From positions 1,003 through 65,002 of the forward strand of contig CAZFHY010000012.1 of assembly GCA_964519305.1 (NCBI GenBank): a DNA stretch of 64,000 nucleotides, written 5' to 3'. Position 1 is the stretch's first letter. Every line of letters begins with the position of its first letter. The notes beneath the pieces were generated by a model, which had not been told where the DNA came from, made no database searches, and was given only the letters and a program-made list of their open reading frames with translations. Shown piece by piece: positions 11,804 through 38,499 of the stretch. The DNA is from Candidatus Undinarchaeota archaeon. GTDB lineage: Archaea; SpSt-1190; JASMDC01. Made by a program: the position numbers and the translations under genes.

Positions 11804-11806
11804 ACA

Positions 11807-12382: not shown

Positions 12383-12533
12383 GCTTCGTCCGAGCACTCG
12401 TCTTCCGTGTCGTTGGCGATCCGCTCCTCGGCCACCGCGATGGACGACCACTTGAGCATGTCGACGACGGTCTTACGTATGAGACCGCTCTTCTCGCGTT
12501 CCTCAGGAGCTGTCCCGTCGAGCTCGGCCATGT

Positions 12534-13727: not shown

Positions 13728-13876
13728 GGCACGGAACCGCAGAAGCTCCTTCTGGTCGACCTTGATCGCAGAACCCTCCGGGGCAGCCCTTTCCAGTCAA
13801 CCTTATAAATCGTTGGCTCGGGTCGGGCCCGCGCGCATAAGTAAGGCTTATGTATTTTTACGCAGGAGCCCTGACC

Positions 13877-14080
13877 ATGTCCAAGCTCAAAGGCGTGTTC
13901 GACGCTCTCTTCGCCATGGCGGTCACCGTAACGGTCCTGGACTGCATGGACAGGATCGCGGCGCTCACCGACAGCATCGAGGCACGGGAGAAGCAGATGA
14001 AGATGCTCTCCATCCACGACGAGATCCTCCAGAAGCGGACCGCCGACATGGCCACCCGCTTAGAGAAGCTCGAGAAGTAG
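13877..14080 (+). CDS. small coiled-coil hypothetical protein
   Basis: ORF MSKLKGVFDALFAMAV...RLEKLEK; the start was chosen at the internal ATG. There is a cataag-taagg-cttatg palindrome immediately upstream. Confidence 0.3.
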   Translation: MSKLKGVFDALFAMAVTVTVLDCMDRIAALTDSIEAREKQMKMLSIHDEILQKRTADMATRLEKLEK

Positions 14081-14152
14081 TCCAACGGGCACCACTCCAT
14101 CGCCCCCGGCCTGCCCGACCGACATAAAAAGCTTAGCTACGTCTAAGGTCAC

Positions 14153-14479
14153 ATGGCACCGCCGCTCACTCCTGAGACGATTCTCCCGCTCGTGCTCCTT
14201 ATCGCCGGGCTCGGCGTCACCCTTGCGGCCAAGACGCTGGAAGGTCTCGCCGGGACCCTCTCCACCGTGATGACGGTCATAGGTATCGCCCTCGCCGGTG
14301 CCGCCGCCGCGAAGGTCGTCCCGCCCGTAGCGCTCGTGGGCGGCGTGATCATCATCGTCGTGGGCCTTGGTATCAAGTTCTTCGTGAAGGCCAACCTATG
14401 GGCCGTCCGTATCGCAGGTATGGGCCTCATGGGGGCCGGTATCGCCCTCCTGGCACGCTCAGGGCTCCCCCTCCCTTAG
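14153..14479 (+). CDS. small hydrophobic membrane protein (3 TM)
   Basis: 108 aa, Gly/Ala/Val-rich helices. It is the first gene of an apparent three-gene membrane-protein operon. Confidence 0.4.
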   Translation: MAPPLTPETILPLVLLIAGLGVTLAAKTLEGLAGTLSTVMTVIGIALAGAAAAKVVPPVALVGGVIIIVVGLGIKFFVKANLWAVRIAGMGLMGAGIALLARSGLPLP

Positions 14480-14489
14480 GGTTGCGACC

Positions 14490-16436
14490 GTGTACGCGAT
14501 CCTCCTTGGACTGGCTGGGGCTTGCGCCTTTGGTGCCACTGCCACCGGCTCGGGCGTGCTGTGGACCTGGTCCGCGCTCTCCTTCCTCCTGGCTACATCA
14601 GTACTGGCGGCACTCCGCATCACGGGCGAGGACGACCCGGTTTCGCTCCTGGTCCACGCGTTCGCGCTTTTACTGGCCGTGGTCCCGGTGTTCCTGGCGT
14701 CCCCGGTGTTCCTGGTGATCATCGCTCTCCTCCTGACGCCCACCCTCGCCAGCGACCGGCCCCGTAGCAGGGACCGACAGGCGTACCGCTCGCTTGTCGT
14801 CCTCCTCGTGGTAGCGCTGATGATCGGTGCCCACTCGCTGAGGAGCTTCACCCCCATCGCCACCGGCGACGACCACTCGCTGTGCCGCGTACCCGGCCAG
14901 CGCAACAGACCATGCAACGATGCCGATGCGGGCATGCTCCGGGTGAGCTCCTGGATGACCTTCTATCACCCCGACATCCTCTACTACCTGGGGATCGTCT
15001 CCCAGATGGCCGCATCGGGCGAGCGCACCTACACCCATCCCCAGTTCGGCGGCAGGACCATCCCATACCCACCGGGCTACTTCGCCTTCTACGCGGCCTT
15101 CACCCGGTTCGACATCCCCGTCCAGGACGTGGCCCGGGCATTGCCGCCGGTGTTCACCTTCATGGTGCTCGCCTCGCTCCTCCACTGCTTTTCCTTCTTC
15201 ACGGGTCGCCGTTACCAGGCGCTCCTGGCCACCTTGCTGTCCCTGGGCACCTTCGTTACACACACTGCATGGAACAACCTGTACAGCTACTACCCTTACC
15301 TCCACTGGTTCAAGGGGACGCCCCTCGGTGTCGAGGCCATGTTCATGACCCCGCAGCAGGCAGGGCTGTTCCTCATACCTCTGTGCGTCGTGCTCTTCCA
15401 GCGGACGTTCCGCGACCGGACGCTGACGTCGGCCGTTCTGCTGGGTCTCTATACGGGCACGCTCCTAAACTACCACGTGCTCTCGGCGCTCCTCATGACC
15501 GTCGCCCTTCTGCCATCGGCCGTCCACAAGGCCTATCGTGGCCGTCCCGTGGCCGGGCTGGTGGTAGCGATCGTTGTGGCGTCCCTGGTCGCGTACACAT
15601 ACCTTGCCCAGGTCGGGCCCTCGTCGTCGAAGTTCATCGAGCGCCGACGGTGGTACTCCAAGGAGCCGCGCGAGTACCTCCAGCAGTTCGGCATCGCCGG
15701 GGTGTTGGCCCTGTTCGGCACGTACGGATGGTGGCGCCGACGTCACGAACTGGAGGAGCAGGCCCACCTGCTGACGGACGGCACCATGGTCCTCCCGCCC
15801 CCGTCGGGAGGCACCTTCCTCCTCTGGGCCGTGGGCTCGCTCGTGTTCATCAACGCGTTCACCCTCACCCAAACCCACGACATCGACCGTGTGATGACGC
15901 TCTTGTGCATCCCTGTCGGTTTCTTCGCATCCTTCCCCCTCCACGCCTGGGCCTCACGGCACGAGCGGACGGCGCGAGTGGTCGTCCCCCTGCTGCTGGT
16001 CCTCAACTCGCTGGTGCTCGTCAAGATCGCCCACGTGCTGTCAGTGATGCACGTCGCCCATCCGCCCGTGGACGAGATGTGCGGGCTGCTCACCGACAGG
16101 CTGGAACAGGGTGCCACCGTGCTCGTCGCGAACCATGAGCATGCCCGTGGGTACGAGCTGGTGACCGCCCTGTGCGGGTTCCCGGCATGGGTGGGGAACG
16201 AGCATCTGGCGCTCACGTGGAGGCTAGTCTGGAGCGAGCGCATGAAGCTCTACGAACGCGTGCTCGACGATCCCCTGGAGCACTGCGACCACGCACACGC
16301 CGAGGGCATCGCCGCCTTCGTGCTACCGCCGAGACTGTGGCCCGGGGAGGATATGGACGTGTGGCACACGACCGAATATTACGTCGTGGGCGACTGTATC
16401 GAGGCCCGGGAGCACGCGGGGCCGCCAGTAATTTAA
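14490..16436 (+). CDS. large polytopic membrane protein (648 aa), possibly a GT-C-type glycosyltransferase
   Basis: More than 12 predicted TM helices with an acidic EDD in the first loop. It has no WWDYG motif, so it is not AglB/STT3. The ORF is continuous in a GC-rich background. Confidence 0.5.
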   Translation: MYAILLGLAGACAFGATATGSGVLWTWSALSFLLATSVLAALRITGEDDPVSLLVHAFALLLAVVPVFLASPVFLVIIALLLTPTLASDRPRSRDRQAYRSLVVLLVVALMIGAHSLRSFTPIATGDDHSLCRVPGQRNRPCNDADAGMLRVSSWMTFYHPDILYYLGIVSQMAASGERTYTHPQFGGRTIPYPPGYFAFYAAFTRFDIPVQDVARALPPVFTFMVLASLLHCFSFFTGRRYQALLATLLSLGTFVTHTAWNNLYSYYPYLHWFKGTPLGVEAMFMTPQQAGLFLIPLCVVLFQRTFRDRTLTSAVLLGLYTGTLLNYHVLSALLMTVALLPSAVHKAYRGRPVAGLVVAIVVASLVAYTYLAQVGPSSSKFIERRRWYSKEPREYLQQFGIAGVLALFGTYGWWRRRHELEEQAHLLTDGTMVLPPPSGGTFLLWAVGSLVFINAFTLTQTHDIDRVMTLLCIPVGFFASFPLHAWASRHERTARVVVPLLLVLNSLVLVKIAHVLSVMHVAHPPVDEMCGLLTDRLEQGATVLVANHEHARGYELVTALCGFPAWVGNEHLALTWRLVWSERMKLYERVLDDPLEHCDHAHAEGIAAFVLPPRLWPGEDMDVWHTTEYYVVGDCIEAREHAGPPVI

Positions 16437-16439
16437 TCC

Positions 16440-17573
16440 TTGGTGTACTACGGACATCCCATGGATGACGGTTCATCGACCACGACCCTCACCTCCACGT
16501 CCTTCGGCCAGCGGCTCGTAGGATTGTTCTTCGCAGGGTTCGCATCCATTTTCTTCATCGTAGGTATCGGTGCCGCGCTGTTCGCCGAGAACGGACCGCC
16601 CATATTCTTCCTCATACCCTTCCTCGCTATACCCGGATTGTTCTTGCTCATCGGGCTCTACCTCCTGCTATCGACCGAGGAGGTCATCGTCGACCGTGGT
16701 CGGAGAGAGATACATATTGTATCCCGGGTCCCGCTCTACACCCTTAGCGACGATTGTGTACGGTTCGGCCTCATCCAGGGCATCACCATCCAGCGGGAGA
16801 TCCGCATCCACCACTCGAACAAGGGTGGTAGCAGCAGGTACGAGGTATGGGTGCTCTACCTCCAGCTCGCCTCGGGTGAGAAGAAGAAGCTGTCCGAGTC
16901 GTCCAGCGAGGTCGAGATCAGGGGCCGGTCCGAGGCACTCGCCAAGGCCACCTACCGGCCGATCATCGACAACTGCACGAGCCCCCCCACGATACGCCAG
17001 TACGATGAACTTGACATCCCCGCGTCCGAGAGCCTAAGACGGGAGGATTTCGAGCGCGTGTACCAGCTCCCACAGGGCCACCCTGTGGCCGAGACGCATC
17101 TCGCCGAGGCAGTAGTGTTCACGTGGTCCATGCGCAATCCTGTCATCGGTACGTTCCTGCTCATCTTCGCGATCATCTGGCTCGGTGGCCTTATCTCCGG
17201 TCCGGGTGCCGGGATCGCGATCGCGCTGAATGCGGGAACTGTGTTCGCTGCGTTCTTTGCCGTGTTCATGCTCCCATTCCTTGCCGCTGGACTGTTCTTG
17301 CTGGGGGCGGGCCTGCTCATGTTCGCAGGCGAGCAGGTGCTCGAGGTGTCGGCCCGCGCGGTCAGCCTCACCACTCGTCTCTATGTCCCCATCCGCACGA
17401 GGACCGTTTCTACCAACGCCATCGAGGAGGTACGGAAGGTCAAGCGCATGGGCGGGCCGGCCGTCGAACTGGTTTCCGACGAGGAGGTGCTCACCCTCCA
17501 GGGGATGGGGAGCATCAAGGACGTGACCGTTATGGAGGACAGGCTCAAGACGGCGCTGGTGTACCGACGATAG
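16440..17573 (+). CDS. membrane protein, hypothetical (two TM-rich regions flanking a soluble domain)
   Basis: 377-aa ORF directly following the previous gene. Confidence 0.45.
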   Translation: MVYYGHPMDDGSSTTTLTSTSFGQRLVGLFFAGFASIFFIVGIGAALFAENGPPIFFLIPFLAIPGLFLLIGLYLLLSTEEVIVDRGRREIHIVSRVPLYTLSDDCVRFGLIQGITIQREIRIHHSNKGGSSRYEVWVLYLQLASGEKKKLSESSSEVEIRGRSEALAKATYRPIIDNCTSPPTIRQYDELDIPASESLRREDFERVYQLPQGHPVAETHLAEAVVFTWSMRNPVIGTFLLIFAIIWLGGLISGPGAGIAIALNAGTVFAAFFAVFMLPFLAAGLFLLGAGLLMFAGEQVLEVSARAVSLTTRLYVPIRTRTVSTNAIEEVRKVKRMGGPAVELVSDEEVLTLQGMGSIKDVTVMEDRLKTALVYRR

Positions 17574-17599
17574 GGCGCTCTTGCATAGCAACTTAAAGG

Positions 17600-17839
17600 T
17601 TGTATCCGTTACATTCTCCGATGGAGAAGCTCGAGCTCATCGCGTTCCTCAACGAGGCATTCATGGTCGAGGAGGTGGAGGTGGGCGTCAAGATAGGCGC
17701 TCTAATCGAATCGGTCCTCTGCGCGCCTATAGATAATGGCTCCAAGAAGGAGATGGTGATCAGGCTCAAAACCCTTATGAGCGAGAGCCAGTACCACTCA
17801 CGCGCGATCTCACAGCTCATCAAGCACGAGGTGGGCTGA
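17600..17839 (+). CDS. small alpha-helical protein, partner A of paralogous cassette 1
   Basis: 79 aa. It is a paralogue of 19308..19532 (shared pattern L.FLNEA.-VEE-E..VK...LIE.V...PI.....KEM..RL.TL..E...HS...S). Its stop overlaps the start of the next gene (ATGA). Confidence 0.5.
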   Translation: MYPLHSPMEKLELIAFLNEAFMVEEVEVGVKIGALIESVLCAPIDNGSKKEMVIRLKTLMSESQYHSRAISQLIKHEVG

Positions 17840-18579
17840 TGGGAGATGCAACAGACGCGCTGGTCGCCCGGTTCAAGGAGATCCGCGAACTGGAACAGAC
17901 GGCGTATGACTTCTACACGTCCCACATCGACCAGATGGACGATCCTAAGATGCGCGCTGTGGTCGAGGCCATCGCTGAAGAGGAGGCCCGGCACGTTAAG
18001 ATCGCCAACGAGCTCATCGCTCTGGCTATCGCCGCGTCAGAGACGGGTGTATCCTCCTACGATGAGGGGGGCTCGGAGGATATCGGCGATGCCCTCAGGG
18101 GGGCGAAGAGCCCGTTCGCTCTCATAGCCCATGGCGAACTGAGTTCTTACTACCGGGCGACATCGAGCATCATCGAGTCGTCCATGAGGATGGGGCGGAA
18201 GGTGCTCTACCTCTCGCTCAACAAGTCCGCGGACCGCATCGAGACAGCATTACGGGACGTAGGGACGCTCATCGGCGACGTTACGTTCATGGATACATCG
18301 ACTACCAAGGACGGACGTCCCCTGGATACTAAAGACCTCGTCGGTCTCTCCATCGAGGTCGTCAAGGCCCTTGAGGACCACAACGTTGTCATTGTCGACG
18401 CGCTGTCCACTCTCTCGATCTATCACCCACTGAACGACATCCGTCGGTTCGCCCACAACCTCATCACTGTGATCAAGGACCGTGAGGCTGATATTGCGTT
18501 CCTCGACCTCGAGCCCGAGGGGAAGCTAAGTCAGGATGCGACGCTCGCCTCGCTCATGGACGTCGTAGTGAATGTGTAG
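17839..18579 (+). CDS. two-domain protein: N-terminal helical domain with E..H motif + C-terminal degenerate RecA/KaiC-like domain lacking Walker A (partner B of cassette 1)
   Basis: N-terminus ELEQTAYDFYTSHIDQMDDPKMRAVVEAIAEEEARH. The C-terminus shows beta-strand/helix alternation reminiscent of KaiC/RadA-like domains (KVLYLSLNK...VVIVDALSTLSIYH...DIAFLDLEP) but has no GxxxxGK[ST]. It is a paralogue of 19532..20281. Confidence 0.55.
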   Translation: MGDATDALVARFKEIRELEQTAYDFYTSHIDQMDDPKMRAVVEAIAEEEARHVKIANELIALAIAASETGVSSYDEGGSEDIGDALRGAKSPFALIAHGELSSYYRATSSIIESSMRMGRKVLYLSLNKSADRIETALRDVGTLIGDVTFMDTSTTKDGRPLDTKDLVGLSIEVVKALEDHNVVIVDALSTLSIYHPLNDIRRFAHNLITVIKDREADIAFLDLEPEGKLSQDATLASLMDVVVNV

Positions 18580-18583
18580 GAGC

Positions 18584-19219
18584 TCAGCCTGAGAGCCGCC
18601 CTTTCGCCCATTCACCGAACGACCGTCCGAACGCCTCGGCATCATCCCGTCGCGCCTCGACCTCGTCGTCCTTCACCCACAGCTCGCGGTCGAACGTGGT
18701 CATTCGAACGTCCGTTAGCCCGCGTGTGATGATGACGTCCTCTCCCTTCAGCTCCCAGCCATAGGTACCGAAACCGCCAGCGGGTCGACCTGCCAGGGCG
18801 GTAATCTGCATATTCCCGAGTAGTCCCTTGATAGCCTCGGAGATGTTCTCGAACTGGCTGGGCGAGCCCAGGAGCACAGCATCGGCCAAGAGCACCTCGG
18901 GCATCGTCTCGCCGGAGGCCTCCAGCACCGCTACCGAGCACTCCGTCTGGCGGACGCCATCGGCGATGGCCCTTGCCAGCGCGGCCGTACGCCCGCTAAC
19001 GCTGTCGTACAGGACCAGCACACGTGGCGGCCCCTTGCGCGAATGCTCCAGGGTGACGGCGTACTCCAGGCACGCCCGGATACATGCTTCGCATTCGGTG
19101 CAGTCCACGGGCCGCATGACGACGCCCTTGCCATCGATGAAGTCGAACACACGGGTAGGGCACACTGACACACAGGTACCCGCTCCCGTGCATCTCCTGT
19201 AGTCGATCCGCGGGGGCAT
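18584..19219 (-). CDS. 2x[4Fe-4S] ferredoxin domain fused to a flavodoxin-like (NADPH-dependent FMN reductase/WrbA-like) domain
   Basis: N-terminus CTGAGTCVSVCP and CTECEACIRAC. This is followed by RVLVLYDSVSGRTAALARAIADGV...LLGSPSQFENIS, a flavodoxin-type FMN-binding pattern. Confidence 0.75.
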   Translation of the reverse strand: MPPRIDYRRCTGAGTCVSVCPTRVFDFIDGKGVVMRPVDCTECEACIRACLEYAVTLEHSRKGPPRVLVLYDSVSGRTAALARAIADGVRQTECSVAVLEASGETMPEVLLADAVLLGSPSQFENISEAIKGLLGNMQITALAGRPAGGFGTYGWELKGEDVIITRGLTDVRMTTFDRELWVKDDEVEARRDDAEAFGRSFGEWAKGRLSG

Positions 19220-19307
19220 TGGCGTGTCGATGGACGGGAACTGATAAAAGTGTGACCTGCGGGGCCGGAAAGTCGTTTATTTATCTCTTGTCCCTTTAAC
19301 ATCCTCT

Positions 19308-19532
19308 ATGGCTACGGGCGATAAAGAACTCGCTATGTTCCTCAACGAGGCCCTCCTCGTGGAGGACCTGGAGGCGGCCGTCAAGGTCAGCAGCCTCATC
19401 GAGCGAGTCACGCTATCGCCCATAGAGGACGAGTTGAAGATGGAGATGCTCACCCGGCTCAACACCCTCCTGCGCGAGACTCATGCCCACTCTTTGGTAT
19501 TCTCCAAGGCCCTGAAGGAGGTGCTGAGCTGA
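19308..19532 (+). CDS. small alpha-helical protein, partner A of paralogous cassette 2
   Basis: 74 aa, paralogue of 17600..17839. Its stop overlaps the next start. Confidence 0.5.
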   Translation: MATGDKELAMFLNEALLVEDLEAAVKVSSLIERVTLSPIEDELKMEMLTRLNTLLRETHAHSLVFSKALKEVLS

Positions 19533-20281
19533 TGGCGGACGACCTTCGTGACCACCTTATCAAAGAGTTCACCGCGCTCAAGGACCTCGAGCGCCAGGCC
19601 CACGACTACTACACCGACCACCTCGACCTGATCAAGGACAAGAAGCTCAGAGAGGTCGTGTCCAATATCGCCGATGTAGAGCTGCAGCACGAGTCCATCG
19701 CCGGCGAGCTCATCAAGCTGGCCGAGTCGCTCCCCTCGGGCGAGGCCAAGGTGGAGATCGAGGGCGCGGGCGAGGCCATGTCCGCCCTTGAGGAGGCCAC
19801 CGAGGACCTTGACAGCCCGATGACGCTCCTCGTCCACACGAGCCTCGAGGACTATCCCCGGACCTGTCAGGCCCTCATCACTTATTTCAAGAAGCAGGGC
19901 AGGCCCATCCGCTACGTGTCGGTGAACAAACCTGCGTCCAAACTCAAGCGCATCCTCAAGAAGCGCGGGGCCAAGGTCGACGACGTATCGTTCATAGACC
20001 CGGCCACATCTGGTGGAATCATGCTGGACCCCAAGAACCTCACCACGCTGTCCGTGCTCTTCACACGCAACTCCGAGAAGGACATGGTGGTCATCGTCGA
20101 CTCGCTCTCGGTGCTGTCGGTGTACCACTCCAAGGACATCCTCCAGCGGTTCGTCCACTCCACGACCATGGGCTCGAAAAGGAAGGGCGTCGACCTAGTG
20201 TACATAACCATGGACGCGGAATCGGACATCGGTAGCGATCCGAGCTTCGAGGCGTTCTTCGACGAGGTCGCGAAGGTCTAA
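19532..20281 (+). CDS. two-domain protein, partner B of cassette 2 (helical E..H domain + degenerate KaiC/RecA-like domain)
   Basis: Paralogue of 17839..18579, with the same architecture: LERQAHDYYTDHLDLIKDKKLREVVSNIADVELQHE; ...IRYVSVNKP...VVIVDSLSVLSVYH...DLVYITMDAES. Confidence 0.55.
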   Translation: MADDLRDHLIKEFTALKDLERQAHDYYTDHLDLIKDKKLREVVSNIADVELQHESIAGELIKLAESLPSGEAKVEIEGAGEAMSALEEATEDLDSPMTLLVHTSLEDYPRTCQALITYFKKQGRPIRYVSVNKPASKLKRILKKRGAKVDDVSFIDPATSGGIMLDPKNLTTLSVLFTRNSEKDMVVIVDSLSVLSVYHSKDILQRFVHSTTMGSKRKGVDLVYITMDAESDIGSDPSFEAFFDEVAKV

Positions 20282-21630
20282 CCGCCGAGCGCCTTCAGGT
20301 TCCCGCTGGCCGCCTCGTTCTTGGGATCGATGGCGATAGCCTTCTGGAAGCACTCACGGGCTTGACCGGTGTCACCTGACACCTGGTAGGCGGCCCCGAG
20401 ATTGTTCCAGATCATGGATGCGTTCGGATCGGCCTCCAACGCCTTCTTGTAGCACTCGATCTCCTTGGCATGGTCGCCCGCATCGCCCCAGGCCGCGCCG
20501 AGGTTGTTCCAGGCGGCAGCGTACCCGGGATCGAGATCTATTGCCTTGCGATAGCACTCCATGGCCTTGGGGGCGACACCCGAGAGGGCGTACACCGAGC
20601 CGAGGTTGTTCCAGGCCGGCGGGAAGTTGTGAGCGATCTCGATGGTCCGCTCGAAGCACTTCTGCGCCTTCGCGAGGTCCATGCGGTCCTTGTACAGCAC
20701 CCCGAGGTTGTTCCAGGCCAGGGCGTCCCGGGGGTCCATGGCCAAGGCCCTCTGGAAGCAGTGCTCCGCCTTGGCGGCGATTCCCGCCCGCTCGTAGGCG
20801 GTCCCGAGCACGGTCCAAGCCTGTGGAAGGCCGGCATTGACGGTCAGTGCCTGAGAGGCGCACTCGATAGCGGCCATATGGTTGCCCTCGAGGTTGAGGA
20901 GCACGTCGGCCAGCATCACCGCAGCTTCGGCGAGCCGGGGATCCCGCTCCAGCGCCCGCGTGTAGAGAGACCGTGCACCGGGCAGGTCGCCCGCGAGGTA
21001 CCGCACGTTCCCCAGCCTGAGCAGGGCAGGTGGTTTGAGGTTGAGCGTGTCGAGCATCTTCTCTGCCGCCTTGATCGTCCGCCGGTCCTCGGGAGAGAAC
21101 TCCACCCGGTCCACGGTCGATACCAGGACAGGTACACGCAGCCGCATGATCGAACTCTCCATGGAGCGCGACTGCGACTCCTCCACGGCCAGCCCGTCGA
21201 GCTTCACGCTGGTCCCGCTGATGAGCAGCTGTGCCTCGTCGTCAGATACGTCGCTCAGAGCCCGTATAGCCTCCTTGTATAGGACGCCCACCTTCATCCG
21301 CAGGTCCTCCTCCAGCCGGGAGCTGAGGTACTCGTGACGGTTCCGCAGATGGTTGGTGAGCCCCACTCGCGACTGCGGGGACAACAGGAGGTCCTTCTTT
21401 GCCCGTGATATTGCGGCGCCGGCGACAGCCTCCGCCGCGTGCGGGTCCAGGCCTGCGGACACCATCTCGTTGATGAGCGCGGTCCGGTGTCCTTGGGCAA
21501 GGTCGGTGAGGAGCATCTTCTCGCAAAGGTTGGTGATGACACGGACCGTGATGGCCGGTGGTTTGTACTCCAGTACCGACAGGGTACCCGCGCACAGAGC
21601 AAGGTTGATCGTGAATACTCCGAGGTCCAT
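20278..21630 (-). CDS. TPR-repeat protein with an N-terminal TM segment
   Basis: C-terminal array of at least 8 TPRs (AWNNLGAAYQVSGDTGQARECFQKAIAIDP, etc.). The first 143 codons of the listed ORF are antisense to the aminopeptidase gene, so the start was set at the internal ATG (21630) preceding the TM segment LGVFTINLALCAGTLSVL. Confidence 0.65.
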   Translation of the reverse strand: MDLGVFTINLALCAGTLSVLEYKPPAITVRVITNLCEKMLLTDLAQGHRTALINEMVSAGLDPHAAEAVAGAAISRAKKDLLLSPQSRVGLTNHLRNRHEYLSSRLEEDLRMKVGVLYKEAIRALSDVSDDEAQLLISGTSVKLDGLAVEESQSRSMESSIMRLRVPVLVSTVDRVEFSPEDRRTIKAAEKMLDTLNLKPPALLRLGNVRYLAGDLPGARSLYTRALERDPRLAEAAVMLADVLLNLEGNHMAAIECASQALTVNAGLPQAWTVLGTAYERAGIAAKAEHCFQRALAMDPRDALAWNNLGVLYKDRMDLAKAQKCFERTIEIAHNFPPAWNNLGSVYALSGVAPKAMECYRKAIDLDPGYAAAWNNLGAAWGDAGDHAKEIECYKKALEADPNASMIWNNLGAAYQVSGDTGQARECFQKAIAIDPKNEAASGNLKALGG

Positions 21631-22777: not shown

Positions 22778-23743
22778 ATGTGCACACCCCGCAACATGCT
22801 CGTGGACCGGGCAGGTCGTGCGTTCGCGGTGGTCGGGCAGTTCCACCTCGAGGACGCATCTGTCGCTTCACTGCGGTACGTCCCTCGTGGCGATCGCCTC
22901 GTGAAGGCGGGCCCTGTCGACATCGCCAGGCTCCACGAACACGAGCCCGGGTACCGTCTGCAGGCGGGTGACACAGTCCATACCATCGTCCCGCACGACC
23001 GCGTGACACGGACGTTCGACCAGTTCGCCGGTGTCGTTGACCTGGACGAGGAGGAGCGGTCTGTCATCGATACGCTAGCAAGGAAGGCAGGGGTGCGCGT
23101 GGGCGTCACCGGCTCCTCCCTCCTGGGGACAGCGCGGCCAGGTTCGGACCTCGACCTCACCACGCCGATACGTGACCATCCCCGACTGCTAGCGGCCGCC
23201 AGGTCCCTTGCAGAGGAAGGGGACGTGCTCGGGCCTCTTACCGATACAGACTGGCAGGCCGTGTACGACAAACGCGGTATCGATGCAACCCACTACACGT
23301 TCGAGCTCTTCCTCGCCCATGAGCGACGGAAGGGCGATCGATGGATGGCCGGACGCCGACGTACCGACCTCCTGCCGACACCTCGCCCCCGGACGGTCGG
23401 TCCCGATGACCTGGCCGTGTACCGGCTTGGCCCTGCCAGGGTCTCTGGTAGGGTGGCCGACGGTTCGGTACCCTACGGCCATCCCGCTATCTACCTGCTT
23501 GAGGACGGTCTGGCGGAACTCAGTGACGGACGCGAGTCCACGGTGGAGGCCATCGTCTGCTTCACGCACACCTACGCCGCCCAAGCATTCCCGGGGGAGC
23601 ACGTAAGCGCTGCTGGGATCCTGGAGCGGTACGGTACGACGGTCGCTGGTTTCGACGGGCCCGTGCTTATCGTGGGTACCGCACGTGATGCGAAAGGTGA
23701 GTGGCTCGTCTCCCGGGAGCTCGCGGGTCGCGTTGTTCAATAA
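22778..23743 (+). CDS. Pol-beta-superfamily nucleotidyltransferase-domain protein, function unknown
   Basis: Minimal NTase motif VGVTGSSLLGTARPGSDLDL (GS-x10-DxD) about 110 aa from the N-terminus. The rest shows no clear similarity. Confidence 0.45.
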   Translation: MCTPRNMLVDRAGRAFAVVGQFHLEDASVASLRYVPRGDRLVKAGPVDIARLHEHEPGYRLQAGDTVHTIVPHDRVTRTFDQFAGVVDLDEEERSVIDTLARKAGVRVGVTGSSLLGTARPGSDLDLTTPIRDHPRLLAAARSLAEEGDVLGPLTDTDWQAVYDKRGIDATHYTFELFLAHERRKGDRWMAGRRRTDLLPTPRPRTVGPDDLAVYRLGPARVSGRVADGSVPYGHPAIYLLEDGLAELSDGRESTVEAIVCFTHTYAAQAFPGEHVSAAGILERYGTTVAGFDGPVLIVGTARDAKGEWLVSRELAGRVVQ

Positions 23744-24418: not shown

Positions 24419-24547
24419 AATGATCCCACATCCTGATACGCATCCGCCGGTCCATCCCGCGGACGAGGAACTCATCGAGACCTTCATCGATTACAGCGCC
24501 ACCTATGGTCCCCGGATCGGTGCAGGCGAACCGTCAGGAGGCGAGCG

Positions 24548-27500
24548 GTGGGACCGCTCCAAGGAGCATGCCATCGCCGACCTGTGGAGCGACGAGGGCG
24601 TCAACGACTTCCGGCCGACCATCATCTGACCGGACCGCAAGGACCTAACGTTCTACCCCGCCAGCAGCTGCCAGCACCTCTCGGTGGGCTCGAGCAGCTT
24701 GGCCGTACCGTGCTCGACCTCGACCACATAGCCCAGCCTGATGAGCTCGCGGATACGCTTGCGGGCGGTGGGCTTGCTAACGCACAGGTCGATCCCGACG
24801 AGGAGTACGACCTCACCGATGAGGATAAATGGATCCTCGAGCGGCTCGACGACATCGTCGACATCTGCCGGGCGAGGTTCCACGACTTCGATCTCAGTGG
24901 GCCCGCGTCCACCATCCACACGTTTGTGTGGAACGACCTGGTCGATACCTACTTGGAGAGCGAGCTGGGCCGCGCGTCCAACGAGTCGAAGACCTTCTCC
25001 GAAAGTGAGGCTCGGGGTGCCCGGTACACGTTCCACAAGGTCCTGAAGACCATTCTCAAGCTCCTCGCTCCAATGACACCGTACATAACCGACTACATCT
25101 GGCGGGAGTTGTACAGTGAAAAGAGCATCCACATCCAGCCCCTGCCCTGGAGGACCGAGGTCCCCGAGTGGGAACTGCCGGAGGTCACGCCCATTTACGA
25201 TGTGGTCACTCCGGTCGTGCCCAAGAGGGTGGAACCGCCCAAACCGGTCATCAAGCAAGCTCCACCACCCGTGGTCACCGCCGCGCCCGGCGGACGATAC
25301 TGGGTGTTCAAGCTCCCCGTAGTATGGGGCAAGGAGCTCACCCTCGAGGACTACCTCAAGGCGATCCGCAAAGGCAAGTGGTTCGGACAGACCAAGCGAG
25401 ACGTCCAGGGCGACCGCTGCCCCAAGGTGGGCGACGTGGTCATCATTCGACAGAACGTCGAACAAGCTGGCTCCGAGAAGGACGGACATATGCACGTCCT
25501 CGGCACCGGTCTCGTCGACCGAGTCATCGAGGAGCGGCCCGGCGACTGGGACACCAATGACGACAAGGACGCTGTACGCTGGTTCAGCGTCGAGGACTTC
25601 AGGGAGATACCCGATGGTAGAGCGATCTCACAGGTAGACCTGCCAATGGTCCCCCGTATACTCGAACCCATCACGGCAGAGACTTGGGCCGGTATCAGAA
25701 CTCAGATCATTGCAGGACCGGCACCGGAGCGCTACTGGGTCTTCAAACTACCCGTCGTGTGGGGCAAGGAGCTCACCCTCGAGGACTACCTCAAGGCGAT
25801 CCGCAACGGCAGGTGGTTCGGACAGACAGCTCGCGACGTCCAGGGTGACCGCACGCCCCGTGTGGGCGAGGGCATCATCATCCGAGAGAACGTACAGCAG
25901 GCCGGGTCAGAGAAGGACGGACACATGCACGTCATCGGTACCGGTGTCGTCGGTCGTGTGATAGAGAAGCGTCCGAAAGACTGGAACACCAACGACGACA
26001 AGGACGCTGTACGCTGGTTCAGCGTGAACGAGTTCAAGGAGATCGAGGGTGGACGCAGTGTCTCACAGGTGGACCTGCCAATGGTCCCCCGTATCCTGGA
26101 GCCTCTGACGTTCGACGCGTTCGCTGGTATCAAGGCTCAGGTCGCAGCAGCACCACCCCCGGAGAAGTACTGGGTGTTCAAGCTACCCATAGTGTGGGGC
26201 AAGGAGTTCACGCTCGAGGACGATCTAAAGGCCCTGCGCAAGGGCAAGTGGTTCGGACAGACAGCGCGAGATATCCAGGGCGACCGCGTACCGCGCAAAG
26301 GTGAAGGCATCATCATCCGGGAGAACGTACAGCAGGCCGGGTCAGAGAAGGACGGACACATGCACGTCATCGGCACCGGCATAGTCGGACGTATCACCGA
26401 GGAGCGGCCCGACAACTGGGACACGAACGACGACAAGGATGCTGTACGCTGGTTCAGCGTGGACAAGTTCAAGGAGATCGAGGGCGGACGCAGTGTCTCA
26501 CAGGTGGACCTGCCAATGGTCCCCCGGATCCTGGAGCCTCTCACGTTCGACGCGTTCGCAGGCATCAAGGCACAAGTAGCCGCTGCACCGCCACCGGAGA
26601 AGTACTGGGTGTTCAAGCTCCCGATCGTGTGGGGCAAGGAGTTCACGCTCGAGGACGATCTAAAGGCCCTGCGCAAGGGCAAGTGGTTCGGACAGACAGC
26701 GCGGGACATACAGGGCGACCGTAATCCCTGTGTGGGCGAAGGCATCATCATCCGCGAGAACGTACAGCAGGCCGGGTCAGAGAAGGACGGCCACATGCAC
26801 GTCATCGGCACCGGCATAGTCGGACGTATCACTGATAAGCGGCCCGACAACTGGGACACGAACGACGACAAGGACGCTGTACGCTGGTTCAGCGTGAAGG
26901 AGTTCAAGGAGATCGAAGGTGGCAGGAGCGTGTCACAGGTCGACTTCCCCATGGTCCCCCGGATCCTGGAGCCGCTCACATTCGACGCTTTCGAAGGCAT
27001 CAAGGCGCAGGTCGCTGCAAAACCGCCGCCGGAGAAGTACTGGGTGTTCAAGCTCCCGATCGTGTGGGGTAAGGAGTTCACCCTCGAGGACAACCTCAAG
27101 GCCCTGCGCAAGGGCAAGTGGTTCGGACAGACAGCTCGCGACCTGCAGGGCGACCGCAATCCCTGTGTGGGCGAAGGCATCATCATCCGGGAGAACGTAC
27201 AGCAGGCCGGATCCGAGAAGGATGGCCATATGCACGTCATCGGGACCGGTATCGTCGGCCGTATCACCGAGGAGCGGCCCGACAACTGGGACACGAACGA
27301 CGACAAGGACGCTGTGCGCTGGTTCAGCGTGAAGGAGTTCAAGGAGATCGAAGGTGGCAGGAGCGTGTCACAGGTCGACTTCCCCATGGTGCCCCGGATC
27401 CTGGAGCCTCTCACGTTCGACGCGTTCGCAGGTATCAAGGCACAAGTAGCCGCAGCACCACCACCCCCGCCACCACTGGACTTCGAGCGGTACTGGCTGT

Positions 27501-27901
27501 TCCGACTGCCATCCGTGTGGGGTAAGGAGGTGCACCTAGACCAGTTCATCGATACTCTAGAGGATGGTGGATGGTTCGGTATGACCGCACGTGACCTCCA
27601 GGGAGGAAGGGTGCCTAAGAAGGGTGACGCGGTCGTCATCAGGACTAACTGTGATCTCTATGGTGAGGTCCCTGACGGCCACATGCACATCATCGGTACC
27701 GGTGTCATCCGCAATACATCCGACAAACCGCCCGACGACTGGGACGGTGATTATGGATTCACCGAACCCGTGCACTGGTTCAGCGTGAGCAAGTTCGACA
27801 AGATCCCTAAGGGTAGAATGGTCACGCAGGTCGACGTTCCCCGCATCCCGAGATTGCTAGAGCCTATCTCGGAGAAGGACTACAAGAAGCTCCTGTCGTG
27901 A
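24548..27901 (+). CDS. multidomain protein: class-Ia aminoacyl-tRNA-synthetase anticodon-binding-like domain + six tandem EVE/PUA-like modules
   Basis: Residues ~95-190 (DKWILERLDDIVDICRARFHDFDLSGPASTIHTFVWNDLVDTYLE...ILKLLAPMTPYITDYIWRELY) match the Anticodon_1 domain of Val/Ile/Leu-tRNA synthetases. This is followed by 6 repeats of about 147 aa, each reading YWVFKLP..WGKE...W.G.T.RD.QGDR...GD..IIR.N..Q....DGHMHV.GTG.V.R......DW.......AVRWFSV..F.EI......SQVD.P..PRILEP......W. That pattern parallels EVE-domain landmarks (YWLMK...W...GD..FFYHS...GIVG..EV...WY.VDV.F). GTG start; the N-terminal roughly 70 aa are Arg/Pro-rich and may not be translated. Confidence 0.7.
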   Translation: MGPLQGACHRRPVERRGRQRLPADHHLTGPQGPNVLPRQQLPAPLGGLEQLGRTVLDLDHIAQPDELADTLAGGGLANAQVDPDEEYDLTDEDKWILERLDDIVDICRARFHDFDLSGPASTIHTFVWNDLVDTYLESELGRASNESKTFSESEARGARYTFHKVLKTILKLLAPMTPYITDYIWRELYSEKSIHIQPLPWRTEVPEWELPEVTPIYDVVTPVVPKRVEPPKPVIKQAPPPVVTAAPGGRYWVFKLPVVWGKELTLEDYLKAIRKGKWFGQTKRDVQGDRCPKVGDVVIIRQNVEQAGSEKDGHMHVLGTGLVDRVIEERPGDWDTNDDKDAVRWFSVEDFREIPDGRAISQVDLPMVPRILEPITAETWAGIRTQIIAGPAPERYWVFKLPVVWGKELTLEDYLKAIRNGRWFGQTARDVQGDRTPRVGEGIIIRENVQQAGSEKDGHMHVIGTGVVGRVIEKRPKDWNTNDDKDAVRWFSVNEFKEIEGGRSVSQVDLPMVPRILEPLTFDAFAGIKAQVAAAPPPEKYWVFKLPIVWGKEFTLEDDLKALRKGKWFGQTARDIQGDRVPRKGEGIIIRENVQQAGSEKDGHMHVIGTGIVGRITEERPDNWDTNDDKDAVRWFSVDKFKEIEGGRSVSQVDLPMVPRILEPLTFDAFAGIKAQVAAAPPPEKYWVFKLPIVWGKEFTLEDDLKALRKGKWFGQTARDIQGDRNPCVGEGIIIRENVQQAGSEKDGHMHVIGTGIVGRITDKRPDNWDTNDDKDAVRWFSVKEFKEIEGGRSVSQVDFPMVPRILEPLTFDAFEGIKAQVAAKPPPEKYWVFKLPIVWGKEFTLEDNLKALRKGKWFGQTARDLQGDRNPCVGEGIIIRENVQQAGSEKDGHMHVIGTGIVGRITEERPDNWDTNDDKDAVRWFSVKEFKEIEGGRSVSQVDFPMVPRILEPLTFDAFAGIKAQVAAAPPPPPPLDFERYWLFRLPSVWGKEVHLDQFIDTLEDGGWFGMTARDLQGGRVPKKGDAVVIRTNCDLYGEVPDGHMHIIGTGVIRNTSDKPPDDWDGDYGFTEPVHWFSVSKFDKIPKGRMVTQVDVPRIPRLLEPISEKDYKKLLS
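25290..27480. repeat. intragenic tandem DNA repeats (period about 441 bp, 5 near-complete copies plus a divergent 6th extending to 27900)
   Basis: Nucleotide-level repeats visible directly (e.g. gtacgctggttcagcgtg...caggtggacctgccaatggtcccccg recur about every 441 nt). Copies 3-5 are nearly identical, while copies 1 and 6 are diverged. Confidence 0.85.
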
Positions 27902-34894: not shown

Positions 34895-35177
34895 GATAAT
34901 CACTCTCTTATGGAGCGCGGGAGCCCGAAGACCGTCTTTTATAGTTTTCCTTTCGACGTGCGCCCCCATCGCTGACCAGGGAGGTTGTTTGGATAGTCTA
35001 ATCTACAAGCTCCTGTTTTGGCCCACAGGATCCAGAAGTCTGATCTACACTAACGTATGAGTCAACCACTGCATCCGACCTGGAAGTACAGATGTGAGTA
35101 TATTGTAGTGAGCCACTGGCGCCAACAAATACCTCGCACGATCGTCGAACGACGAGAACGAAGCAATATCGGGGCTT

Positions 35178-35285
35178 CTAGATGCGGCGCGCCTTGCGCT
35201 GCATCTTACGGCGCCGCTTCTTGCGCCACTTCCAGCGGCTCTTCTTGCCGACCCGCTTCTTCCATGGGTGACTTGTTTTCGACAA
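35178..35285 (-). CDS. rpl41e: ribosomal protein eL41 (L41e), 35 aa, probable TTG start
   Basis: Minus-strand frame encodes (M)SKTSHPWKKRVGKKSRWKWRKKRRRKMQRKARRI, which is extremely Lys/Arg-rich. The core RWKWRKKRRRK resembles the eL41 signature (eukaryotic [25 protein letters not shown]). It is too short to appear in the ORF track. The overlapping listed ORFs (35045..35380 - and 35057..35320 +) are in other frames. Confidence 0.5.
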   Translation of the reverse strand: MSKTSHPWKKRVGKKSRWKWRKKRRRKMQRKARRI

Positions 35286-35399
35286 GTTATATCACTCGTA
35301 AGCGACTGTGGAGTGGATAGCTCTTTTAAGGGTTTCGGCTCGGGCGGGCCCCGAGGGAAGATACATAAAGATTTGCCCACTCGAAAGTCAAGCCTTCAT

Positions 35400-35474
35400 G
35401 GGCTCGTGGTGTAGTTTGGATAGCATGGGGGCTTGCGGAGCCTCAGATCGCGGGTTCAAATCCTGCCGGGCCCA
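35400..35474 (+). tRNA. tRNA-Arg (anticodon GCG)
   Basis: Manual cloverleaf fold: acceptor stem GGGCUCG/CGGGCCC (one G-U), D-stem GUGU/GCAU with a D-loop containing GG, anticodon stem GGGGC/GCCUC with loop UUGCGGA (U33, anticodon GCG, G37), 5-nt variable loop, T-stem GCGGG/CCUGC with loop UUCAAAU, and discriminator A. No encoded CCA. Confidence 0.75.
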
Positions 35475-35476
35475 TC

Positions 35477-35499
35477 CGGGGGGGACCTTCCCCCCCGGT
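35477..35499 (+). other. perfect GC-rich hairpin immediately 3' of the tRNA (CCGGGGGGG-ACCTT-CCCCCCCGG)
   Basis: 9-bp inverted repeat with a 5-nt loop, read directly from the sequence. A possible processing or termination element. Confidence 0.5.
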
Positions 35500-35844
35500 T
35501 AACACCCACTTAACAGTCGTAGGACTCGTCGCCATTTTCACGCGCTCAGGTTAGTTTTTACCAGCTCATACAGGTAAGAATCGCTGTACGGGATACATGC
35601 CCTATAGTCCAGCACACTATATATAGCATCGAAGTATGCGGTCCGAACGAGGCCTTTTGGGGGATATAGATGTACTGAACTCCCACTCCGGAGATAAATC
35701 GAAAGCCAAGAATCTTAATAAGGCTTAATAACGCTTAATTAGGTGAATTAAGCCATATTCGTGCGATTTAGGCGCACAGGCGACGGAAAAGCTTATAAAC
35801 AGGTATTCGATGGTTCGCTATTAGTAAGAAAGCAGGTGACAATC

Positions 35845-36036
35845 ATGCTCATCATCGATCCGGAAATGTACGATGCCTACCAGGCCACTCATGGCGTAGT
35901 AGGCGCCGAGCCCAATACCATCTTGGACATGGGCTTTGGTAACTACAATCCCTTCGATAGATCCGAGAACGACTACGTCGTTAAGGGTTACTGGGAGCCT
36001 GTCTACCAGCCCGAAGAGGACCTTGACAAATATTAG
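35845..36036 (+). CDS. small acidic protein, paralogue A (63 aa)
   Basis: MLIIDPEMYDAYQATHGVVGAEPNTILDMGFGNYNPFD... A GGTGA Shine-Dalgarno-like sequence sits 7 nt upstream and a TATA about 50 nt upstream. Paralogous to 36354..36548. Confidence 0.45.
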   Translation: MLIIDPEMYDAYQATHGVVGAEPNTILDMGFGNYNPFDRSENDYVVKGYWEPVYQPEEDLDKY

Positions 36037-36100
36037 ATATCATTCTTTTTTCCGTACCCCGTCCCCCATCGATCCCGCCTCCCCGGCGGGATCGATACCC
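36037..36100 (+). terminator. oligo-T tract plus 12-bp-stem hairpin (atcgatcccgcc-tcccc-ggcgggatcgat)
   Basis: ttcttttttcc directly after the stop codon, followed by a perfect inverted repeat. Confidence 0.45.
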
Positions 36101-36353
36101 CCCTTTTCCCAATCGCCTCCCTGTGTGAGCTGTTCCCCACGTCACAGGTGTTAAAGTAGCGTTAAGATGGACCGTTCCGACAATATGTCGTATCACACAA
36201 GTATGCGGTCCGAACGAACTTCTAATAACCCTTAATATTACTTAATTTGGCGAATTAAGCCATATTCGTGCGATTTAGCCTCATAGGCAAAGGAAAACCT
36301 TATAAACCGGCCAAGAATGGTGTGAGAACCGTCCGAAAAAAAAGGTGAACGCG

Positions 36354-36548
36354 ATGCTAATCATCGATCCTGAGATGTTCGAGGCGTACCAGCGCACCCA
36401 TGGTGAGCTGGGCACTGAGCCCCGACCGGAGTTGGATCCGGGTTTTGGGGACCTCGATATATTCAGGAACGATCTGTCCGAGCATCCGATGTACGGGGAA
36501 CAGGACCATAAGGACGACCCGTACAAACAGGAGGACACGTATCACTGA
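36354..36548 (+). CDS. small acidic protein, paralogue B (64 aa)
   Basis: MLIIDPEMFEAYQRTHGELGTEPRPELDPGFGDLD... A GGTGA sits 6 nt upstream. Same upstream and downstream signals as paralogue A. Confidence 0.45.
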   Translation: MLIIDPEMFEAYQRTHGELGTEPRPELDPGFGDLDIFRNDLSEHPMYGEQDHKDDPYKQEDTYH

Positions 36549-36612
36549 TCATACTTTTTTATCCGTACCCCGTCCCCCCAACGGCCCCGTCCTCGTGGCG
36601 GGGCCGTTCCCC
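36549..36612 (+). terminator. oligo-T tract plus hairpin (aacggccccg...cggggccgtt)
   Basis: acttttttatcc after the stop, followed by a 10-bp inverted repeat. Confidence 0.4.
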
Positions 36613-37086
36613 CCTTTTTCCTTGCTTATCCCGCCCGGATATATCTATCTTCACGGGAAGGCCCTTCGCTTGAACGCCGTTCCATCCGTATTAAGTATTA
36701 ACAAACCCCGATCACCAACAGTACACGTAGGTCAACTGAAAAAAGCCTACGGATTTCGTAATCCCTGCAGCCCCACCTACGAGACGCCATGAGGTGTGCG
36801 GTTAAAAGACAGACGGAAAGACAATCCTTTTAAGGCGACCATGACTCGTGGCCACCGCCCGCATGGGCAAGCAAAAAAAGATGCATAGAATGGAACAAAG
36901 GAGGAATGCGAAATGCTTTCACTGGTTCCCGGCCCGATGAACATCCAGCGGCCCATCGATACAATGACCCTACAACACTACACGAGCGACGAGTACGACC
37001 ACCCAGAGGTCAAAGCACCTCTAAACCGTTTTCTTGATGATGACCTGACCACGTTCTAGACGATCCACGGATATGTCAGAACAGGC

Positions 37087-38484
37087 TCATTCCTGTTTCT
37101 GCGGGGGCCCGTCACCGACACGCGCCCACACATCACCCAAGTGGTTGACAAGGACTATGTCGTCCTTGGCCTTCTTCTCCAGCCCCTCCAGCAGATCCAG
37201 CGTGCGCTCGATCTCGGAACGGGCTGCAATAGGTCCGGCCGCAGGATCGTAGATGTCCTGCCAGACAAGACGGATGAACACCGCCCGCCCCGGAGTGCGG
37301 AGGTCATAGAGATGGAGATACTCCCGGGTCAGAGTACTGCGCAGCCCACAACACCAGAGGAACTCCACTTCCACAGTGCCATCGAGCACGGCCGAGAGCT
37401 CGCCCTTGCTCTGGGGTACGATTATCTCCCCCTCTACATCCTTACGGGGTACTACGAAGAACCATTGATCCATGCGAACGGGATCGTCCGGTACCGGGAA
37501 CGCTGTCAGCGCGCGTTCGCCCAGGTGTGTCCTGATGAGATCGAGCACGTTCGGAGCCGCCAGGTCGTGGCGGCGCCGGAACTCGGCGGCTTCCTTCAGG
37601 CTCTCCAAGAGGTTCTTGACGCGCTGGTCCTCCTCGTCGAGCCCCAAGGCCATCTGTGCGCACTCTACGGCACGGTCCAGCTTCCCGAGCTCGTCGCTGC
37701 ATACCGCCAGGTTCAACCATGCCTCGCGGAACGACGGGTCCAGGGCCACGGCCCGCTCGAAATCCTGGACCGCACCCTTGAGCTCTCGACGCTCCATATG
37801 GAGGGCACCGAGATGGAAGTGTGCATCGCTGCTGTTCGGATCGGCCTCAATGGCCTTGTGATAGGCGGCCCTCGCGCCGTCGACATCCCCCGAACGTAAC
37901 AGGCAGAGGCCCAGGTCGAGCCATCCCTCGATGAGGGTGGACCGCATCCCTACAGCACGTTCGAAGGCCTCACGTGCCTCCTGCCATTTCCCGAGAGAGG
38001 CGAGGCCGACACCGAGGTTGAGCCAGAACTCGGCCCGTGCGTCGTCGATGGACAAGGCCATACGGGAGCACATCACTGCCTCCTGATGCTTGTTCTCCTC
38101 CACGAGCCAGATGGCGAGGTTGTTCCAGGCCACGCAGTCCTGGGGGTTCTTCTCGATGGCCTTGCGGCAGGCCATCTCGGCGCGTGTGTACTTCCCCTCA
38201 CCTGCGAAGTAGAGGGCGAGGTAGTCGTAGGCCTCGTTCTCCGGATTGGACTCGAGAAGGCGCTTGAAGCACCGCCGCGCACCCTTCTCGTCCCCGAGCT
38301 CCCCCAGGGCGAAGCCTAGGTAGATGAGCACTTCCGGTGCGTCTGGTTCGATACGGAGAGCGGTCCGCAGCAATCGGGCGGCCTCCTCGTACTCCCCATT
38401 GCGGTAGTGCTCCTTCCCATCGAGGAGGAACACGCTCTTGGCGCCCACGCCACGCTTCGGATGGCCAATTATATAAAGGCCCAC
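37087..38484 (-). CDS. TPR-repeat protein
   Basis: At least 8 TPR units in the N-terminal two-thirds (e.g. [59 protein letters not shown]); non-TPR C-terminal domain. Confidence 0.7.
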
Positions 38485-38499
38485 GGCAGAGGTCCCGGC

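Follow-up and report, generated by a model that had tools for sequence, protein, structure and literature searches.

A marine archaeal gene joining six predicted EVE-like modules to a ValRS-type anticodon-binding domain

EVE domains, together with the related YTH and ASCH domains, form a branch of the PUA-like superfamily that includes readers of modified nucleic acid. Some EVE domains evolve fast and occur in defence contexts, among them archaeal standalone EVE proteins encoded beside SNF2-nuclease restriction genes, and the census that recorded them mentions neither fusions to aminoacyl-tRNA synthetase (aaRS) or anticodon-binding domains nor tandem EVE arrays (Bell, Wolf and Koonin 2020, PMC7641849). 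Here we analyse a gene from a 64-kb stretch of archaeal DNA, referred to as the window throughout, in which an anticodon-binding domain of valyl-tRNA synthetase (ValRS) type is followed by six tandem EVE-like modules. The host is a marine DPANN archaeon of the order Undinarchaeales, because the glutamyl-tRNA synthetase (GluRS) encoded in the window shares 91% identity with the one from 'Candidatus Undinarchaeales archaeon ETNP3_MAG_31'. We tentatively read the product, termed the array protein, as an effector-less multivalent reader of modified nucleic acid that belongs with the fast-evolving, defence-context EVE class and carries a captured, dead ValRS domain; this is the reading we favour, while stopping short of calling it probable.

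Pieces of synthetases that persist outside a synthetase are a second point of comparison. We take the known truncated aaRS paralogues and aaRS-derived domains to include YadB/GluQ-RS, PoxA/GenX, HisZ, AlaX, YbaK, Trbp111/Arc1p-type domains and the GlyRS-like domain of the pol gamma accessory subunit. We know of no earlier description in which a class Ia Anticodon_1 domain by itself is fused to reader modules, and a literature search on tandem EVE, PUA or YTH arrays and on stand-alone anticodon-domain paralogues found nothing relevant. An earlier note on the window, made from the sequence alone, knew of no described hexa-EVE array fused to an anticodon module, and the EVE census contains none.

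Six modules and an anticodon-binding domain

Nucleotides 25295..27898 encode six head-to-tail modules of 137-151 aa (R1 to R6, Table 1); the count agrees with the earlier note, which had given a uniform length of roughly 147 aa. Repeat analysis with TRF returned a period of 435 nt in 5 copies (score 2794). R1-R5 share 70-96% identity with one another, R6 is 46% identical to the others, and the loop D63-G-H-M-H67 (DGHMH) is invariant in 6/6 modules. An AlphaFold2 (AF2) model of R6 from a 10-sequence alignment (pLDDT 82.3, pTM 0.80) has the secondary-structure order beta-alpha-beta-alpha-4beta, which is the order of the EVE domain (PMC7641849). Fold searches with the module model led to PUA-like structures: the top Foldseek matches in the PDB were MJECL36, PH1033, YTHDF2 and 2eve, and in BFVD, behind two unnamed matches, the first named one (rank 3) was an 'EVE domain-containing protein'. 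An hhalign comparison of the module alignment A2 with four PDB EVE sequences yielded 123 collinear columns at E 0.0028, with a probability of only 10.8%, in a register that lines up YW, W-G, R..Q, GD, the beta-5 Trp and R-L..P-[IV]-[TS] with EVE. By the hidden Markov model (HMM) criterion the modules are not members of Pfam EVE (PF01878). Judged by predicted fold and weak sequence signal, they would constitute a divergent new family in the EVE/YTH/ASCH branch of the PUA-like superfamily. The likeness to EVE and other PUA-like domains claimed earlier thus stands for the predicted fold, is seen in a part of the EVE signature residues (W-x-G, R..Q, GD, the beta-5 Trp and R-x-L..P) and fails for the Pfam profile.

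The family appears to be confined to a few metagenome-assembled genomes. In 1.84 billion cluster representatives, an exhaustive HMMER search with a profile of the six repeats returned five proteins, four of them credible and all four from marine Undinarchaeales-like contigs: the array protein itself (P0001), P0020 with at least two repeats, P0021 with one, and P0022, a standalone module of 129 aa. The fifth, the NEAT-repeat protein P0023 (E 1e-4), was set aside, its match being an artefact of low complexity or of repeats. A second search added just two P0022-like proteins. P0022 matches all six modules at 27-36% identity (E 1e-9 to 3e-14). The module profile had no match in a scan of genome contigs and no relative among 2.9 million viral contigs, and it found one stump among metagenome contigs.

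Upstream of the modules lies the sole significant Pfam domain of the 1117-aa frame, Anticodon_1 (PF08264), at residues 93-201 (nt 24824..25150; E 8.6e-25, 87.8 bits against a gathering cut-off of 25.1 bits, profile positions 1-106 of 148). Among 5.8 billion proteins searched, the matches were P0001 itself (1063 aa, 7 contigs) and full-length class Ia synthetases that match on the anticodon stretch only; the closest of these are archaeal ValRS, 42-47% identical over that stretch, and no protein consisting of this domain alone was found among the scored candidates. Of 41 columns conserved to 80% or more among 12 ValRS, the domain retains 30. When four archaeal ValRS were compared with the window by tblastn, they matched with residues ~8-45 (24540..24626, in another frame) and ~613-751 (24788..25234, at 42-46% identity) only, and no catalytic core (HIGH, KMSKS, CP1) was found anywhere in the 64 kb; the frame likewise has no tRNA-synt_1 Pfam match. 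Both parts of the earlier description of this region, a class Ia anticodon-binding domain at the N-terminus and no catalytic core, are thereby confirmed. The ValRS catalytic core, CP1 and the C-terminal domain are all missing, and the array protein as encoded is unable to aminoacylate.

Table 1. Features of the array locus (residue numbers refer to the 1117-aa frame)
Feature	Position	Strand	Remarks
orf69	24420..24629	+	Remnant left by the ValRS N-terminus at nt 24546..24626 (C-terminal half), stopping just before the HIGH region; frame differs from that of the main open reading frame
DUF835 remnant, last 45 codons	24656..24790	-	tblastn of L091 DUF835 residues 235-279: 78% identity over 45 aa, E 1.2e-17
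Most likely coding sequence of the array gene	24710..27901	+	1063 aa; GTG start, anticodon-binding domain, Pro-rich linker, six EVE-like modules, stop; 8 public contigs carry the same gene call
ValRS-type class Ia anticodon-binding helical domain	24788..25234	+	No catalytic core; Pfam Anticodon_1 and tblastn with archaeal ValRS
Last part of Pro-rich linker, anticodon domain to first module	25235..25294	+	Translation and ValRS alignment; replaces the normal ValRS C-terminal domain
EVE-like module R1	25295..25729	+	145 aa, residues 250-394
EVE-like module R2	25730..26164	+	145 aa, residues 395-539
EVE-like module R3	26165..26599	+	145 aa, residues 540-684
EVE-like module R4	26600..27034	+	145 aa, residues 685-829
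EVE-like module R5	27035..27487	+	151 aa, residues 830-980; longer Pro-rich linker
EVE-like module R6	27488..27898	+	137 aa, residues 981-1117; divergent terminal copy, counterpart of the single or last copy in relatives

Gene model, assembly of the locus and relatives

The open frame of 1117 aa at 24548..27901 on the forward strand exists as the earlier note had reported it, yet the protein itself is probably shorter. Upstream of the anticodon domain, the only in-frame ATG, GTG or TTG codons are those at 24710 and 24548. Codons 1-28 of the long frame overlap orf69, which is read in a different frame, and in a comparison of the window with its relative L091 the ratio of nonsynonymous to synonymous substitution rates (dN/dS) over this overlap is 2.17 in the long frame and 0.59 in that of orf69; codons 37-81 are antisense to the 3'-end remnant of a DUF835 gene. 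On these grounds the first ~80 codons appear not to be genuine protein, and the start at GTG 24548 was rejected despite an AGGAGG 6 nt upstream of it. Translation probably begins at GTG 24710, where the public database gene call (1063 aa) starts as well; with 24548 set aside, it is the one start codon that takes in the complete anticodon domain. The frame is no assembly accident, because the array gene is present on 8 contigs, L001 and L002, from two different samples, do not differ at any position over 15.7 kb, and the window matches L001 exactly across all 23.2 kb.

The debris around the start suggests how the gene came about. The C-terminal half of orf69 (RWDRSKEHAIADLWSDEGVNDFRPTII, followed by the stop codon) aligns to the N-terminal part of archaeal ValRS, with the alignment ending just short of the HIGH region, and a tblastn search within the window matched residues 14-45 of the ValRS P0004 to it (E 5e-4). 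From left to right the locus thus holds a ValRS N-terminal stump, a DUF835 stump on the minus strand, the ValRS anticodon domain, a Pro-rich linker and the six modules. The locus is a ValRS gene with its middle destroyed, of which the anticodon domain is a leftover. GTG 24710 falls inside the antisense strand of the DUF835 remnant, which itself has weak winged helix-turn-helix-like Pfam matches only. A candidate small regulator gene, the minus-strand helix-turn-helix at 24653..24795, was rejected, being the C-terminal stump of the DUF835 gene. In L091, a second short copy of the DUF835 3' end (3448..3501) lies beside the full gene, which suggests recombination at this sequence. As for orf69, it is absent from L003 and 72% conserved in L091 (dN/dS 0.59), where its ValRS-like C-terminal stretch from GGERWD to the stop is near-invariant (29/31 residues); it may be a functional micro-protein or a slowly decaying stump.

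The array is translated and under purifying selection, because R1-R5 keep their protein sequence across a long synonymous divergence (pairwise dN/dS 0.05-0.24 at dS 0.41-0.94), a pattern that an untranslated relic cannot produce. Between genomes the gene changes faster than its flanks. Relative to L003 it is ~50% identical with a dN/dS of 0.3-0.5, whereas the flanking genes are 83-97% identical, with values of 0.05-0.14 for most controls measured; for the same genome pair, dN is 0.33-0.40 in the array gene against 0.014-0.16 in the five flanking genes measured. These rates mark it as a fast-evolving, accessory gene.

The flanks of the array locus are syntenic in relatives, and the module copy number across four relatives is 6, 1, ~2.65 and a stump. 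L003 has the same junction from anticodon domain to linker ('PWRTE[VI]PE'), so the fusion is older than the split between the window lineage and L003. In that relative the domain has degenerated and has no start codon ahead of its final helix; tandem Pro-rich units and then one module follow it. These units of ~25 aa ('PVPMPLAVMPPFTPSPAPVEQAVHSI', at ~9600..10100), whose run is broken by an assembly gap of Ns, occupy the position of the internal EVE-like repeats. L091, from Tara Oceans, has no anticodon domain: orf69 is followed by a HEPN gene (Pfam PF05168), an MntA-like nucleotidyltransferase, an intact DUF835 gene, the N-terminal half of the DISARM gene drmD, a truncated module and two complete ones. 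This half of the DrmD helicase (profile positions 2-476 of 1021; NCBIfam E 1e-164, PADLOC E 3e-175) runs out of frame directly into the truncated module. The interval 3596..7589 of this contig, with the HEPN/MntA-like pair, DUF835 and the DrmD half, is a decayed defence island. L095 retains the last ~40 codons of one module only.

The standalone P0022 sits in another setting, on contig L005. Within 8264..20390 of that contig, a XerA-like tyrosine recombinase with a 79-aa Cys-rich protein lies on one side of it and an SbcD-like/SMC-like pair on the other. A PbeABCD system begins ~5 kb downstream of P0022, with a complete-looking set of PbeA (E 3e-224), a 63-aa open reading frame, PbeC (E 8e-200) and the dnd-associated dnd_assoc_4, plus a gene with a MutH domain. 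Such surroundings resemble those recorded for fast-evolving EVE domains, including the pairing of standalone EVE proteins with SNF2 nucleases (PMC7641849). The array locus itself is a dispensable, fast-turnover rearrangement hotspot that holds defence-system debris in relatives. In the window, PADLOC found no defence gene, and what remains at the locus is the DUF835 stump.

Readings of the array protein

Were the array protein a multivalent reader, each module would offer the same small pocket for a flipped-out modified base. Since five of the six modules are 70-96% identical, the six copies would confer high avidity for a polymer that bears the mark at many sites, and since no nuclease or ATPase domain is present, the protein would exert its effect through occupancy, whether as a coat, a sequestering agent or a shield, or would bring in other factors. 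Short Pro-rich linkers suggest an array of beads on a string. The ValRS-derived helical domain, which may be a captured leftover, could lend affinity for tRNA-like stem-loops or could simply be a folded N-terminal cap that supplies a translated 5' end. The analysis establishes the make-up of domains, the predicted fold class, purifying selection, how rare the family is, how unstable the locus is and the settings of its relatives; ligand binding, the DNA or RNA nature of the ligand and the mode of action are what we infer here. The family context favours a DNA target, and the retained anticodon domain favours RNA.

Several observations weigh against this favoured reading. The Pfam models of EVE, ASCH, YTH, PUA and DCD have no match at E<=1 in the full protein or at E<=10 in single modules and homologues, so that the profile search of a repeat unit against Pfam EVE, PUA, ASCH and YTH suggested in the earlier note came out negative; structure prediction and Foldseek, which the note had suggested for the full protein, returned for a single module the PUA-like matches named above. 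The missing profile match is accordingly accompanied by an EVE-like predicted fold and not by a different one, whereas the note had taken only the two negatives together as refuting the module assignment. PADLOC matched the modules to no PUA-like family, and an hmmsearch of the PDB with the module-family profile gave noise only, with no PUA-like family. The fold rests on one AF2 model from 10 sequences, the hhalign probability is low, and an AF2 construct of two modules, modelled with rigid packing between modules in view, was of low confidence (pLDDT 44, pTM 0.35). The EVE signatures 'VRNYQARN' and 'YHS' are not conserved, 'GQTxRDxQG' and 'IRxN' standing in their place, so the chemistry of the pocket may not be that of EVE, or there may be no pocket. 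As to context, the neighbours of the array in the window look like housekeeping genes with no effector nearby, and the SbcD/SMC-like pair separates P0022 from the Pbe genes, which makes that association loose. Finally, the five lineage-specific changes of the anticodon domain at ValRS-conserved columns in the window are all conservative (Y>F, A>V, L>F, I>M, F>Y), which suggests that it is still under constraint there. This fits an RNA target better than a DNA target and argues that the domain matters in the window lineage.

These last points lead to the strongest competitor, the tRNA-directed reader or scaffold proposed in the earlier note, which we regard as unlikely. In this account the ValRS domain docks on a tRNA(Val)-like anticodon stem-loop while the modules recognise modified nucleotides of that tRNA or of tRNAs nearby, and modified tRNA is thereby sequestered, protected, sorted or captured. 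A tRNA target is possible: the domain is intact, in frame and conservatively evolving in the window lineage, its fusion to the array predates the split from L003, and archaeal tRNAs are heavily modified. The EVE, YTH and ASCH relatives, moreover, include RNA binders (PMC7641849). The two domains that the proposal invoked are present, but the function assigned to them is weakened on several counts. The family can dispense with the anticodon domain, which is absent from L091 and from P0022-type proteins and which in L003 lacks a start codon and has nine lineage-specific changes at ValRS-conserved columns, including W>E, E>R and K>V. The destruction of a ValRS gene left the domain behind as a by-product, in a frame whose start codon lies inside an antisense gene remnant. 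Its net charge of -13 makes it more acidic than 12/12 real ValRS domains, which span -6 to +9, and this speaks against retained tRNA binding. We know of no isolated class Ia anticodon domain that binds tRNA tightly by itself, and the contexts of the relatives point to DNA defence. A bolder variant, and a less probable one, would make the protein a dead aaRS domesticated as an effector-less tRNA sponge or shield, with the anticodon domain targeting tRNA(Val)-like molecules and the six pockets clamping modified nucleotides, either to protect tRNA from anticodon nucleases or to sequester viral or host tRNA.

About as improbable as that variant is the view of the modules as small-molecule sensors or as enzymes of the PUA-like superfamily. 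Precedents for enzymes exist in ASCH-type RNases and ac4C amidohydrolases, and the DGHMH loop, invariant across the array, would then serve catalysis or metal binding. Precedents for sensors are those of free modified nucleotides, as in the PUA-Cal-HAD system, and a PUA-like sensor of m6-dAMP (bioRxiv 10.64898/2026.01.15.699771). However, DGHMH is missing in P0022, P0024 and P0025 and partly lost in the L091 copies ('DELMH', 'DGNMH'), no ASCH model matches the modules, and six-fold tandem amplification suits avidity for a polymer better than it suits catalysis.

The possibility that the gene is a decaying relic, an accidental fusion of debris in a hotspot that has no present function and is heading for loss, we rate slightly lower again. 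Remnants do lie all over the locus (orf69, the DUF835 stump, the truncated DrmD and truncated first repeat of L091, the L095 stump), the gene is dispensable in relatives, its between-genome dN/dS is raised, and reading of the sequence before GTG 24710 revealed no promoter-like or Shine-Dalgarno-like motif. A relic would nevertheless not be expected to keep a 3.2-kb frame open in a genome of 60% GC, nor to be identical in independent samples, and the low dN/dS among R1-R5 after a dS of 0.4-0.9 needs long-term selection at the level of translation. A structural role as phage tail-tube-like modules (Pfam Phage_tube, PF04985) is effectively refuted, since the PF04985 score (E 2.1e-9) merely sums six weak repeats with no single stretch passing and no match of single modules at E<=10, a lone Foldseek match to a tail-tube protein has a low probability (0.21) in a fold search that otherwise leads to PUA-like structures, and the viral contigs hold no relative.

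Neighbourhood and comparison with known systems

The surroundings of the array in the window comprise genes for a nucleotidyltransferase, two small membrane proteins, a membrane-anchored protein, a HAD protein, a tRNA-synt_1b (TyrRS/TrpRS-type) protein, primase-like Toprim proteins and GluRS. A conserved 315-aa protein with a weak NTP_transf_2 match (22796..23743, +) heads a same-strand run that continues with the two small membrane proteins and orf69 and ends in the array gene, for which reason this run may be an operon. The downstream HAD gene was considered as a partner in a PUA-Cal-HAD-like system and rejected: it stays 86-90% identical in whichever condition the array is found, and its place is next to the tRNA-synt_1b gene on the strand opposite to the array. 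Farther away, two paralogous gene pairs (17621..18579 and 19308..20281, +; 72+246 aa and 74+249 aa, 36-46% identity) surround a Fer4/flavodoxin-like gene and have weak ferritin/rubrerythrin-like and KaiC/DUF7504-like Pfam matches; the second pair is missing from L003, where a 594-aa membrane protein takes its place. A gene-poor segment at 34970..37090 (GC 0.54-0.57 against ~0.61) holds the only tRNA of the window, tRNA-Arg(GCG), at 35399..35477. At 38407..39189 (+), 10 kb from the array and with no link to it established, lies a gene for the 7-cyano-7-deazaguanine synthase QueC (NCBIfam TIGR00364, E 2e-52, above the cut-off); QueC catalyses a step towards archaeosine or 7-deazaguanine modifications.

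The locus is a clean natural case of gene birth from debris, in which a destroyed ValRS, an antisense DUF835 stump that contributed the start codon and a reader array became one selectively maintained frame, the welding of gene fragments having taken place inside a defence hotspot of a genome-reduced DPANN archaeon. The modules would add a new and extremely rare branch to the EVE/YTH/ASCH reader superfamily, one missed by current profile libraries, and would be the first case found of EVE-like readers amplified to a six-fold tandem array without an effector, which implies recognition of densely modified nucleic acid through avidity. Should the ValRS domain still bind tRNA, it would open a new route for synthetase parts into non-translational roles; and a tRNA sponge or shield, if true, would be a new kind of conflict or host-dependence factor in a DPANN symbiont, built on multivalent reading of RNA modifications. 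We see in the array protein a known superfamily extended by a new branch that profiles miss, within an architecture of which we found no description, and not a categorically new system.

Set beside archaeal ValRS, a class Ia synthetase, the locus keeps an anticodon-binding domain 42-47% identical to the authentic one and, in the upstream orf69, ~30 residues of the ValRS N-terminus, whereas nothing is left of the Rossmann core that bears HIGH and KMSKS, of the CP1 editing domain or of the C-terminal domain. It resembles the known truncated aaRS paralogues in that an aaRS piece survives outside the synthetase and is reused; those pieces, in contrast, are mostly catalytic, editing or OB-fold appended domains. 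With the EVE family (PF01878: PSPTO5229/2eve, PH1033, MJECL36/UPF0310, THYN1) the modules share the same predicted six-stranded beta-barrel of beta-alpha-beta-alpha-4beta order and the collinear motifs YW..K, W-G, R..Q, GD, beta-5 Trp and R-L..P-[IV]-[TS], but they carry a DGHMH loop of their own, escape the Pfam EVE model and form a six-fold array to which an aaRS anticodon domain is fused and which has no partner domain of nuclease, GTPase or acetyltransferase type. From the YTH and ASCH proteins (YTHDC1, YTHDF2, Mmi1; ZmASCH, TRIP4), which usually have a single copy, they differ by the lack of a sequence-profile match and by a YTH aromatic cage that cannot be mapped onto them. The fast-evolving, defence-associated EVE class (PMC7641849) is matched in that the array gene turns over faster than its genomic flanks. 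As to a defence context, relatives of the modules adjoin SNF2-type restriction or defence genes, HEPN-MNT toxin-antitoxin genes and a recombinase, and the array in the window has no defence gene left around it.

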